Source: Patescibacteria group bacterium (GTDB lineage Bacteria; Patescibacteriota; Patescibacteriia; UBA9934). Taken from it: DNA of 24,975 nt. The stretch covers positions 1-24,975 of the forward strand of contig JBBTSN010000053.1 in assembly GCA_038078775.1 (NCBI GenBank), written 5' to 3'. This document shows, in pieces, positions 11,274 through 24,390 of the stretch. The notes below the pieces were generated by a model, which did not search any database, was not told the origin of the DNA, and saw only the letters and a list, made by a program, of their open reading frames with translations. The position numbers and the translations under genes are program-made. How positions within the stretch are numbered: position 1 is the first letter of the stretch; the number at the start of each line of letters is the position of its first letter.

Positions 11274-12235
11274 ATGGGTTGTAAATGCTGTGCAATAACA
11301 CGTGCGGCATTCTTCCAAGATACCTTTTCGATATCTTCTTCGGTATACCCACGAGTACGAAGTTCATCCCAAAGAAGGGGAAGACATTCAAGAGAATCAA
11401 GTTGATGAACGTGTCCGGTAATGATGCCGCCAAAGTCTGTGCCGAGCGCAACGTGATCAATGCCCATAATTTCCTTGAGGTGATCAATGTGGTTTGCGAC
11501 GTCGCTTATTTCTGCATGTGGAGTTCCCGTAACATACGTTCGAGCAAAAAATACCCCTACAACTCCTTGAGTTTTTGCAACGAGATTAAGCTGCTCATCG
11601 GTATAGTTACGCGGATTTTTACAGAGCACGCAAGAATTTCCGTGACTCACGAGAATGGGGCGTCGTACGCACGCGGCAGCATCTGCAAACGTAGGCGCAT
11701 TCATGTGGGCAAAATCAACCAACATGCCCTTTTCTTCACACCAAGCAATAAGCTTTTTTCCAAGAGGAGTAAGGCCCGTTGAGGGGTCTTTGGTACCCCC
11801 ACCCAAACTATTAGTGACATTCCATACAATTCCGAGCGAACGCCAGCCAAGTGTGTACCAGCGCTCAAGCATTCCCCAGTCAGTATCGGTAATCGCATTT
11901 AACCCCTCAATGTGAAGAATGATACCCGTGTGATTTTCCGCGGTAAGTGCAGATGAAAAGTCTTCAGAAGTTTTAATAATGGTATGTTTACCACTTTCTT
12001 TGCATCGAGTGTTGTACTCATTAAAATCACTTTCAATCATGTTATTGGTAACGCGGTCAAGATACTTTTCGTCTGCAGGAACGGGAAATGCCGTTGCAAC
12101 AACCACTTTTGTGTTTGTGCGAAGAAGCATGTCGAAATCGGTCTGCCAATGATCAGGGTAAAGATCGCGACGGTTGATATGCAAAAGGAGATCTTGGTGA
12201 AGATCAACGAGTTTAGGAAAAGAGAGGGAAGACAT
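11267..12235 (-). CDS. Membrane dipeptidase family (peptidase M19)
   Basis: DLHQD, HIEG, VDFAH, VSHGN and HVALGTDFGG amidohydrolase motifs. Overlaps the murI start by 7 bp. Confidence 0.9.
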   Translation of the reverse strand: MSSLSFPKLVDLHQDLLLHINRRDLYPDHWQTDFDMLLRTNTKVVVATAFPVPADEKYLDRVTNNMIESDFNEYNTRCKESGKHTIIKTSEDFSSALTAENHTGIILHIEGLNAITDTDWGMLERWYTLGWRSLGIVWNVTNSLGGGTKDPSTGLTPLGKKLIAWCEEKGMLVDFAHMNAPTFADAAACVRRPILVSHGNSCVLCKNPRNYTDEQLNLVAKTQGVVGVFFARTYVTGTPHAEISDVANHIDHLKEIMGIDHVALGTDFGGIITGHVHQLDSLECLPLLWDELRTRGYTEEDIEKVSWKNAARVIAQHLQPIC

Positions 12236-12253
12236 AGAGTATAAAGAGAAAGA

Positions 12254-12290
12254 GTGGTGAGTGGGGACGGATATACTCCGCCCCCACCAC
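12254..12290 (-). terminator. Hairpin immediately after the GC-rich orphan gene
   Basis: GTGGTG..GGGG.CGGA-loop-TCCG.CCCC..CACCAC, followed on - by a T/C-rich tail. Confidence 0.5.
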
Positions 12291-12291
12291 G

Positions 12292-13437
12292 TTACGACGA
12301 GAATCGTGCGGCGAACTCCCGCTGGCGGGTCGCTTCAGCGATCAGGAGGTCGATGTCCTTGATCGGCGCTTCGAGCGCCCAAGGGTGAGTGAAGAAGGTG
12401 CGGCCTCCCGAGACGATGTCGTGCTGCGTGAAGCAGTTGGCGCGAGCGATGTCGTAGAAGACAGGCTCGGCGGAAACGGCTGCACGGCGCAGACGAAGGA
12501 GATCGCGATCTTTTTCACCGACGCATGCCGCAATGATTGCCTTGCGGCTGTCATCGCTAGCGCCTTTGATGCGCTGTGCACGTTCTTTGTTGCCCTGGCC
12601 AAGCCCAAGCCATGCTTCCACGAGCTCGTTGATTTCGGCCTGGTGCATGGCATCCCCCGCGAGGCGGATGTTTGCGACCGGGACGAGGTTGAGCGTGAGC
12701 GTTTCGGGGAGCGCTAGCGCCTTGCGGACGTAGGCGTACAGGGTCTTGAACTTCCCGAGCAGCCTATCAATATAACGCACCATGTCGGGTCCCGACAGGT
12801 GATACACCTCGGCGTGTCCCGTAGCCTGCGCCTCGACGATGGTATCGACGAGGATGTTGAGGACGTTCGGGAGCACGGCGCCGCACGTGTCGTTGGTCAG
12901 CCCGTAGATGCGGAGCGTGAGCAGGTCATCCCACGACGTCACCCGACAGGGAACGCGGTCACCTTCGGGGGTGACCTGGAACTCCCACACGCTCGAGTCT
13001 TCGCGCGTCACGCTCTCGAGGATCGCGAGCACGAAGTCTGCATGACTGCGCAGGTAGTCGGTGTACGTCACACAGTCTGCGTGCGGCATTGCGTTCCGCA
13101 TTGCTTCCATGTGGCACTCCGTGACCAGGCGGCCTTCCGTGAACGAACCGATACGACACGAAGCGCGCTGCACGCGGGCATGCGTAGTGAGCTTCGTTCC
13201 GCAGGTGACGAGCTCGGGCGTGCCGCTGACAATCACCTGGTGCGGATGAAAGTTGCGGTCGCGAGCGCCGATCGTGCGGTCGTAGAAGTTCATGTGCACA
13301 CCCGCATCGGCCATGATGAGGTTGTTCGTGTACACGTTGCCCACGTGCGGGGTTTTCATAACAGAGTAGCCGCATTGACGCAGCCGCCGCAGATCGTTGA
13401 TGGAGAGATCCGTCCGGTTACGTACGACAAAGCACAT
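12292..13437 (-). CDS. Hypothetical 381-aa protein, GC-rich, with a possible HIGH-like motif
   Basis: Long ORF with an upstream GAGGG SD-like sequence, and KTPHVGN near the N-terminus. I do not recognise the family. Confidence 0.8.
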   Translation of the reverse strand: MCFVVRNRTDLSINDLRRLRQCGYSVMKTPHVGNVYTNNLIMADAGVHMNFYDRTIGARDRNFHPHQVIVSGTPELVTCGTKLTTHARVQRASCRIGSFTEGRLVTECHMEAMRNAMPHADCVTYTDYLRSHADFVLAILESVTREDSSVWEFQVTPEGDRVPCRVTSWDDLLTLRIYGLTNDTCGAVLPNVLNILVDTIVEAQATGHAEVYHLSGPDMVRYIDRLLGKFKTLYAYVRKALALPETLTLNLVPVANIRLAGDAMHQAEINELVEAWLGLGQGNKERAQRIKGASDDSRKAIIAACVGEKDRDLLRLRRAAVSAEPVFYDIARANCFTQHDIVSGGRTFFTHPWALEAPIKDIDLLIAEATRQREFAARFSS

Positions 13438-18377: not shown

Positions 18378-18417
18378 AGGATTTCACTATACTCTCTCCA
18401 CGTGCCTTTGCCTCGAG

Positions 18418-18489
18418 GGCTACTTTACTGAACTGGGGAGTATTTATGTTGAGGTGAAGATCGGTATGGATAAGATGCAAGCGAATTGT
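18418..18489 (+). repeat. Cassette left-end repeat, copy 1 (degenerate, core lost)
   Basis: TTTACTGAACTGGGGAGTATTTATGTTGAGGTGAAGATCGGTATGGATAAGATGCAA aligns with copies 2-4. Confidence 0.85.
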
Positions 18490-19477: not shown

Positions 19478-19686
19478 GATTGAGGCTCGATGGCTAATGT
19501 AGAATGTACCTTAATTCGCCTGATAAATCCACCGAGAACTGTGGTCGGGGTTCGAGCCGAAAAAATAAGGTAAATTTGGCATTTCGGGCATTTAAGAAAA
19601 ATTCGTCTGTTTTGCGTCCCGGGCGCTTCGGTTTTCAATGACGACTTTTTGACAAGGCATGTGGGGTCACCTCACGCGCCTTCTCA

Positions 19687-19771
19687 TGGTTCCCTAGGTT
19701 ACCCTTTTACCGAACTGGGGAGTATTTACGCTGGAGTGAAGGTCAGCATGGAGAAGATGCAGTCAAACTGC
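19687..19771 (+). repeat. Core (TGGTTCC) plus cassette left-end repeat, copy 2
   Basis: TGGTTCCCTAGGTTACCCTTTTACCGAACTGGGGAGTATTTACGCTGGAGTGAAGGTCAGCATGGAGAAGATGCAG. Confidence 0.9.
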
Positions 19772-21820: not shown

Positions 21821-21970
21821 ACTGTATCAGTTCTAACCCCATCCCGGGTAGTCCCAAAACAATAACAAAACCCCAGCATTTCTACTGAGGCTTCATTGGC
21901 TCCCTAGATTACCTTTTTACCGAATTGGCAAGCATTTACGCTGAGGTCAAGGTGAGTATGGAGCATTTGC
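21821..21970 (+). repeat. Full cassette junction: right-end module, TGGCTCC core and left-end repeat copy 3
   Basis: ACTGTATCAGTTC (21821-33), 63 nt, TGGCTCC (21897), then CTAGATTACCTTTTTACCGAATTGGCAAGCATTTAC…. Confidence 0.88.
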
Positions 21971-22822: not shown

Positions 22823-22970
22823 AGTGTATCAGTTCGGTAAGAAATCTGGGAGGTATTCAAAAATATAAAAATCCCTAGCGAATTGCTAGAGATTTTTATG
22901 GCTCCCTAGGTTACCTTTTTACCGAACTGGGGAGTATTTATTCCGAAGTGAAGATCAGCATGGATAAACT
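22823..22970 (+). repeat. Full cassette junction: right-end module, TGGCTCC core and left-end repeat copy 4
   Basis: AGTGTATCAGTTC (22823-35), 63 nt, TGGCTCC (22899). 22863-22905 is an exact 43-bp copy of 23821-23863. Confidence 0.92.
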
Positions 22971-23780: not shown

Positions 23781-23863
23781 ACTATATCAGTTCGACACCC
23801 ATTTGGGGTAATCCAAAAATATATAAAAATCCCTAGCGAATTGCTAGAGATTTTTATGGCTCC
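23781..23863. repeat. Cassette right-end module abutting the tRNA 3' end (includes a terminator-like hairpin)
   Basis: ACTATATCAGTTC (23781-93), 63 nt, TGGCTCC (23857). Hairpin AAAAATCCCTAGC-GAATT-GCTAGAGATTTTT. Confidence 0.9.
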
Positions 23864-23897
23864 GGGGGAGGGGATCGAACCCTCGACCTGAGGATTA

Positions 23898-24281
23898 CAC
23901 ATTGTCTCTCGGTTTCCCGAAAGGGTGGACTATATCACCATCCTTGATATGAAGTGAGTAATCTCTACTACATATCTTTCGGATGCGAGGCGCTTCCGGC
24001 GACGTTACCGTCGGCGTACTCCCTTGCGGGATAGTCTCTGAACCTTCCCAATGACCTCTGTCATTTTGGGCTTGGCTGCTGATTACCATGTCCGCAATGC
24101 GGACGAAGGCTTCCAGACAATTCACCTCGTTTTCATTCCAGAATTTCTCCTGGAAGCTGCGTAATACCCGCGTGAACTTCACGATGACAGCTAGTGCAAG
24201 ACGCACGCTTTATCGTTTCGGCACGTTGGGCATAGGTTCGTTTCTCAACCATATGTTTAAAGTATAGTTGGAAACAGTGCC
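23898..24281 (-). ncRNA. Group I intron (subgroup IA-like), 384 nt, inserted at tRNA position 35/36
   Basis: P AATTGTCTGGAA, Q AATCAGCAGCC, R GTTCAGAGACTA, S GATATAGTCC. P3 GAGGUG/CGCCUC, P7 GACUA/UAGUC, P7.1/P7.2 hairpins, GAAA-capped P9, and terminal G. Confidence 0.93.
24133..24252 (-). pseudogene. Internally deleted HNH homing endonuclease remnant inside the intron
   Basis: 39-aa ORF MVEKRTYAQRAETIKRASCTSCHREVHAGITQLPGEILE*; CxxCHREVH is the terminal Zn/HNH motif. Confidence 0.65.
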
Positions 24282-24339
24282 ACAGTCCTTCGCTCTGCCG
24301 CTGAGCTACCCCGGAACATATTTCCTGATTTCTTCTTCT

Positions 24340-24364
24340 TGCCTCCGCGGGTGGGAATCGAACC
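24340..24364 (-). pseudogene. Orphan tRNA 3'-half fragment (Asn-like acceptor)
   Basis: On -: GGTTCGATTCCCACCCGCGGAGGCA (T-loop, 3' T-stem, acceptor CCGCGGA, G73, GCA). No matching 5' half upstream. Confidence 0.6.
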
Positions 24365-24390
24365 GTAATAGCAAAAAAGAAACCGTACAG

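Follow-up and report, generated by a model that had tools for sequence, protein, structure and literature searches.

The window, by which we mean the whole stretch of 24,975 nucleotides that was analysed, very probably carries the sole tRNA-Asn(GUU) gene of its genome, split by an IA-like ribozyme that comes from a mobile group I intron with an HNH endonuclease gene. The gene lies on the minus strand and occupies positions 23857-24315, exactly the span given for it in the initial annotation. Exon 1 (24282..24315, minus strand) is 34 nt long, covers tRNA positions 1-35 and has the 3' end CUGU, U35 being the nucleotide at -1. The IA-like group I intron (23898..24281, minus strand) has a length of 384 nt and ends with the omega-G at 23898; it is supported by the match to Rfam RF00028, the insertion point in relatives and covariation. 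Exon 2 (23857..23897, minus strand) comprises 41 nt, corresponding to tRNA positions 36-76; it begins with UAA, has the discriminator G73 and encodes the CCA. A terminator-like hairpin with a T-run (23823..23856, minus strand) is located directly 3' of the CCA end.

The joined exons were recognised by ARAGORN as a canonical 75-nt tRNA-Asn(gtt). With default settings, ARAGORN reported no tRNA in the window; with introns allowed the gene was found, but it was named Thr(tgt) and the intron was placed at 33. The expectation of the initial annotation that standard tRNA finders would miss the gene was thus confirmed. tRNAscan-SE 2.0 is by its own statement not designed for the detection of group I introns in tRNAs. 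An uninterrupted tRNA-Asn is present in genome G001, which belongs to the same genus; both of its halves are 100% identical to the window exons, and they are joined exactly as CTGT|TAA. Upstream of the tRNA-Asn the flanks of G001 and the window are syntenic (75% over 525 nt), so the G001 gene represents the empty site of the same locus. The uninterrupted tRNA-Asn genes of further relatives also read CTGTTAA. From the comparison of these sequences the intron junction is assigned to position 35/36 of tRNA-Asn, because the identical exons of G001 read CTGT|TAA at the syntenic locus. Removal of the intron gives a cloverleaf with GUU, and the gene is orthologous to the uninterrupted genes. The split of tRNA-Asn(GUU) at 35/36 that had been claimed earlier agrees with the ARAGORN result for the joined exons and with the uninterrupted gene of G001, and the restored loop CUGUUAA, the U at -1 and the omega-G are likewise borne out by the joined exons and the relatives.

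A search with the Rfam group I covariance model RF00028 (Intron_gpI), a check that the initial annotation had named, gave a match on the minus strand at 24190-23906 with 80.7 bits (E 2.4e-19; gathering score 50), which spans the whole model (positions 1-253). The ribozyme parts of 26 introns, from the guide sequence to the omega-G, were aligned (alignment A1). The prediction made by RNAalifold itself from these 26 introns contains 59 pairs. Compensatory changes occur in 39 of the 59, and the pairs form P2, P3, P4, P5, P5a, P6, P6a, P7.1, P7.2, P8 and P9. P1 and P7 are invariant in the family, and covariation supports neither; P7 is a pseudoknot and hence lies outside the RNAalifold prediction. 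The omega-G was found in 28 of 28 copies, as was the U at -1.

All elements of the fold are given here for the minus strand. The internal guide region (24157..24165) consists of AUUA (24165-24162), a C and GCAG (24160-24157). GCAG is the P1 partner of the exon-1 CUGU, with U35.G as a wobble pair; GCAGC is invariant in 26 of the 26 aligned introns, and P1 (CUGUg/cGCAG) emerged when the first 168 nt were folded (MFE) without constraints. The AUUA (24165-24162) may form P10 with the exon-2 UAAU, a pairing that appears weaker in several relatives. The P2 hairpin (24136..24155) has 8 bp and a GAAA loop, and 7 of the 8 pairs show compensatory changes. P3 is made up of 7 pairs between the 5' strand GAGGUG (24128-24123) and the 3' strand CGCCUC (23987..23992), with many compensatory changes in 3 of the 7 (GC/AU swaps in 10-12 sequences). 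Within the P4-P5-P5a-P6-P6a domain (24041..24119) P4 and P5 are nearly invariant, and P5a and P6a covary. The P7 5' strand, or R element (24032..24038), is GAGACUA with a bulged A, and its partner is UAGUCC at 23932-23927; both strands are invariant in the 26 sequences and match the Rfam consensus. P7.1 (24031-24020) has a GCAA loop and 3 pairs, one with double changes (4 sequences), while P7.2 (24016-23997) has a GUAA loop and compensatory changes in 7 of 7 pairs. P8 (23939..23985) bears an extension of ~30 nt that is peculiar to the window copy. The stretch 23906..23938 comprises J8/7 (GUGAUA), the P7 3' strand UAGUCC (S element) and P9, a hairpin of 7 bp with a GAAA loop, 5 of whose 7 pairs show compensatory changes.

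P7.1 and P7.2 between P7 and P3' are the hallmark of subgroup IA. In the Rfam alignment this region of the window intron stands out as an insert of 37 nt that separates the P7 5' strand from P3', and with the covariation in both helices the intron is IA-like. The helices P3 to P9 have comparative support (P7 being uninformative), P1 contains the U.G pair and the intron ends with a G, as expected of a group I intron. The initial annotation had described a complete P/Q/R/S core with P7.1/P7.2 extensions, which is upheld by the Rfam alignment and the covariation, and its IA-like subgroup is supported by the RNAalifold covariation together with the Rfam insert. In four other loci (L016, L029, L030 and L032) an extra 40-60 nt were observed in the region of the P4 5' strand (A1 columns 49-111). 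The insert is situated between AAUUGU and CUGGAA and resembles an added hairpin. In a wastewater RNA contig, 62 nt are inserted at the equivalent point, which is 24116/24117 in the window.

The genome to which the window belongs has a size of 954 kb in 179 contigs and is 92.8% complete. The initial annotation had proposed looking for another tRNA-Asn; neither a second tRNA-Asn nor a second group I intron (Rfam) was detected in this 92.8%-complete assembly. tRNAs for every other amino acid were present, those for Met and Trp being recovered at a lower threshold. Eleven further split-tRNA calls were obtained from the genome with ARAGORN when introns were allowed, and none of them overlaps a group I match. 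One of these calls (C108) is a ghost composed of an ordinary tRNA and upstream sequence, and the other 10 are taken to be ghosts of the same kind. Two related genomes of 95-100% completeness (G006 and G019) contain the interrupted copy of tRNA-Asn only. The window copy keeps 84 of the 84 invariant columns of the 26-intron alignment. It would still have to splice, because another tRNA-Asn is absent from the assembly, and self-splicing is very likely in view of the sole tRNA-Asn, the same situation in relatives and the conserved invariant columns.

Transcription of the minus strand would produce a precursor of ~460 nt with the ribozyme between the anticodon nucleotides 35 and 36. The guide GCAG would pair with the exon end CUGU and place U35.G at the cleavage site, where a free guanosine would attack. 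The terminal G (23898) would subsequently enter the G site, and ligation of the exons would result in the loop CUGUUAA. The ancestor would have been a mobile intron whose P1 loop housed the gene of an HNH homing endonuclease of 106 aa; in the window genome this gene has collapsed to a remnant of 39 codons. The window copy of the intron is probably immobile. The analysis shows the structure of the gene, its junction, the fold of the ribozyme (by covariation) and the decay of the endonuclease gene; catalysis, as well as homing by the HNH enzyme, is something that we infer.

Two other readings of the gene were weighed. Splicing two nucleotides earlier (CU|...G|UGUAA) would yield the anticodon UGU (Thr), likewise with a U at -1, a G at the intron end and a 7-nt loop; this is the register called by ARAGORN with introns allowed, and it is formally possible in 73 or more homologues. 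The initial annotation was right in choosing the Asn register but did not mention this second register compatible with U at -1 and omega-G. The uninterrupted orthologues, one of which lies at the syntenic locus and matches the exons with 100% identity, nevertheless read CTGTTAA, and the invariant guide GCAG sets U35, not U33, opposite the G. On these intronless orthologues and the geometry of P1 the Thr(UGU) register was rejected, and its probability is considered negligible. The tRNA body also resembles the tRNA-Asn genes of relatives and has G73, and the genome already possesses two tRNA-Thr(tgt) genes, whereas Asn would otherwise be absent. A ribozyme that fails to splice, with tRNA-Asn supplied from an unassembled contig, is somewhat easier to imagine but still improbable. 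With 179 contigs and a completeness of 92.8%, a second tRNA-Asn could sit in the missing 7%, and two features, the ORF deletion and the ~30-nt extension of P8, are private to the window copy. Yet none of the 84 invariant columns is lost, every core helix can form, the exons match the functional gene of a relative with 100% identity, and the deletion affects a peripheral loop that is wholly missing from the versions of 222-296 nt. In addition, the relatives with 95-100% completeness carry nothing but the interrupted gene. A sole tRNA-Asn gene with a ribozyme that splices at 35/36 is accordingly the preferred reading.

The P1 loop of the long intron versions (524-638 nt) accommodates an ORF of 106-107 aa. 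The 106-aa ORFs of the relatives scored 22.5-23.6 bits with Pfam HNH (PF01844; cut-off 21.4) and matched PHROG HNH endonuclease families at ~1e-29. The 3' codons of the ORF traverse the P10 strand as well as guide and P2, with the TGA stop in J2/3. As the last ~11 HNH codons double as P10 strand, guide and P2 in all ORF-bearing copies, a ribosome reading the ORF would unfold P1/P2. The P1 loop of the window copy, with 121 nt, is peculiar to that copy and contains an HNH gene remnant of 39 codons (24133..24252, minus strand). The window peptide retains the N-terminal ~17 residues and the last CxxCH segment; Pfam gave no HNH match for these 39 aa, so the peptide is regarded as a remnant and not as a family member. 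The lengths of the at least 117 intron copies are bimodal: 57 copies have 222-296 nt and no ORF, 47 have 524-638 nt with ORF, and 13, including the window copy, are of intermediate length. Three long copies (L005, L007 and L032) have a frameshifted ORF. The lengths, frameshifts and remnants form the series expected when a homing-endonuclease gene decays. Independent in-frame internal HNH deletions were observed at L024:1359-1562 (G105) and L030:1544-1759 (G119), leaving 67 and 71 aa, respectively. One of the two joins the first CxxC to the second, which suggests loss between repeated Cys-codon motifs.

The 39-codon ORF might be under selection, either for its small protein product or because splicing is controlled by translation across the guide and P2. 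The deletion in the window copy leaves reading frame, start and stop intact, and the two other independent deletion derivatives (L024 and L030) are also in frame. On the other hand, only 3 of the 7 intermediate introns with ORF remnants are in frame, which is near the one-in-three expected by chance, an ORF is missing from about half of the copies, and the 39-aa peptide is devoid of the HNH catalytic segment. Selection for in-frame mini-ORFs was rejected, as the 3 of 7 gave no signal, and we attach very little probability to it. The notion that the in-frame remnant is a translation-dependent switch on the maturation of the sole tRNA-Asn seems just as far-fetched. Because in-frame retention does not exceed chance, the minigene is read as debris of the HNH gene.

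Twenty-seven other genomes of the order share the intron and its insertion site, and their copies measure 224-638 nt. The insertion point with U at -1 and omega-G recurs in at least 117 loci overall. Of the 162 genomes of the order, at least 35 carry the intron (34 at E<=1e-8, plus G054), and within the genus of the window a match to the intron was obtained in only 3 of 18 genomes. DNA of the window was also present in groundwater metagenomes. A motif spanning P7, P7.1/P7.2 and P3' was used to scan contigs of one genome per species. This yielded at least 120 loci, nearly all with Patescibacteria titles, a few with Omnitrophota titles and some in evidently mislabelled records; about 100 further species, mostly Patescibacteria, carry the class. 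The term rare, which the initial annotation had applied to the intron, is wrong within the lineage in view of the at least 35 of 162 genomes and the at least 120 motif loci.

Among the matches listed with a split tRNA around the motif (n=107), 97 were called Asn at 35/36 directly, and 4 more proved to be Asn on inspection. One of the 107 (L092) has the motif in an intron of tRNA-Asp(GUC) at 35/36, and two (L149 and L157) have it in introns of tRNA-Phe(GAA) at 33/34; closely related ribozymes thus occur in other tRNAs. Free jumping among tRNAs with G34-U35 (Asn, Asp, His, Tyr) was considered and rejected, most of the non-Asn calls being boundary errors of ARAGORN. A single clade for the introns of family f1 was rejected by the AU test (p 9e-6), and the monophyly of the three introns from the same genus was not rejected (p 0.32), both values coming from a poorly resolved tree. 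The non-monophyly of the f1 introns suggests movement between families or an old polymorphism.

Near-identical contigs containing the intron were present in four metatranscriptome runs from freshwater and wastewater. These RNA contigs reach from one border of the tRNA gene to the other and run across both splice junctions. They represent unspliced RNA or else DNA carry-over in the library; none of them skips the intron, but they are assembled contigs, in which mature tRNAs are poorly captured. In one contig the ORF remnant is shorter by another 42 nt and the P8 extension by 33 nt. Another has a 214-nt insert at the ORF deletion of the window, which is about the size of the missing part of the ORF. 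The RNA contigs are consistent with transcription of the precursor in close relatives.

The final 7 nt of the tRNA-Asn gene together with 40 nt of the terminator region downstream are repeated 958 bp away with 98% identity (23817-23863 and 22859-22905). The initial annotation had called the gene the anchor of a cassette array, a claim for which this repeat of the tRNA end and terminator provides a partial check. The repeats fit small elements integrated in tandem at the 3' end of the tRNA. A 75-nt repeat was observed after each TGGCTCC-like core, in four copies (18399-18473, 19681-19755, 21891-21965 and 22893-22967). Downstream of its tRNA-Asn, G001 has no similarity to the window, although it is syntenic upstream. 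On the minus strand at 24340-24365 there is a 25-nt fragment that resembles the T-arm and acceptor 3' end of the tRNA-Asn of other lineages. It has three mismatches or fewer to several relatives, and 25 nt separate it from the tRNA-Asn gene downstream. A 5' half that would match this tRNA-like fragment was not found, and at the same stringency it is absent from the syntenic spacer of G001. The GC content of positions 12001-13000 is 0.57, compared with ~0.45 in the rest of the window.

The current understanding of group I introns is not changed by the window intron. Since tRNA finders miss the gene or call it tRNA-Thr, genomes of Patescibacteria seem to be without tRNA-Asn. The family represents a predicted IA-type ribozyme on which the cell depends, and within one bacterial order it displays the homing cycle as a natural series, with a full HNH gene, deletion remnants and no ORF. 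The HNH enzyme is presumably specific for the DNA of the tRNA-Asn anticodon loop.

The classical IC3 introns in tRNAs are those of Anabaena/Nostoc tRNA-Leu (34/35), Azoarcus tRNA-Ile, Agrobacterium tRNA-Arg and cyanobacterial tRNA-fMet; they reside in other tRNAs and at other positions than the window intron. Michel and Westhof are said to have described IC3 introns in 1990 as being without P7.1 and P7.2. The window intron has both helices, supported by covariation, unlike the classical IC3 introns, and is thus not assigned to IC3. To our knowledge, an endonuclease gene is absent from most IC3 introns in tRNAs. Phage introns of subgroup IA with HNH endonucleases include those encoding I-HmuI in Bacillus phage SPO1 and I-TevIII in T4 nrdB. 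They share with the window family the IA-type core, P7.1/P7.2 and an HNH-family gene in a peripheral loop. The phage introns interrupt protein-coding genes, whereas the window intron interrupts a tRNA, and in the window family, as opposed to the phage introns, the ORF is located in the P1 loop with its 3' end over the guide and P2. A blastn comparison with 50,697 phage records gave only short matches to the conserved core.

The introns in the T-loop of tmRNA are likewise group I introns in a tRNA-like RNA, but the host RNA and the loop are different. Their endonuclease genes, where present, are of the LAGLIDADG type and not HNH (PMC11915505). The tmRNA introns, too, have P7.1/P7.2 columns in the seed alignment of Williams (bioRxiv 2020, 10.1101/2020.01.27.920355). 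Group I introns were reported to be frequent in tRNAs of CPR genomes (Lui et al. 2021). Williams extended the bacterial intron-bearing tRNA types from the four classical ones (Leu, Arg, fMet and Ile2, all IC3) to 21, and the classes Asn.4Ug and Asp.4Ug are listed there (10.1101/2020.01.27.920355). The initial annotation had referred to reports of introns at 35/36 of tRNA-Asn and tRNA-Asp and had judged the intron probably not new; both statements are correct. The preprint gives no subgroup, endonuclease description or biochemistry for Asn.4Ug, and a limited literature search yielded no paper on a P1-loop HNH gene of the class, on the overlap with the guide or on a splicing assay. The seed alignment of Williams contains Pam37.Asn.4Ug, Wba81.Asp.4Ug, Mba143.Tyr.4Ug and Mpe6.Lys.4Ug and has P7.1/P7.2 columns. 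The Pam37.Asn.4Ug line of this alignment, read by eye, has the same order of elements as the window, with P3, P4-P6, GCAGAGACUA and a hairpin insert before AGCGCC, and it continues as in the window with CAUCC...GGAUG, GAUAGUCCAC and the end ...AAGUG. The window intron falls into class Asn.4Ug, since it shares with it the tRNA, the insertion after the 4th loop nucleotide (35/36), the U at -1 and the omega-G. Asn.4Ug and the window intron show no essential difference, and the latter is real and well supported, adding one more member to a class that is already catalogued and, locally, common.
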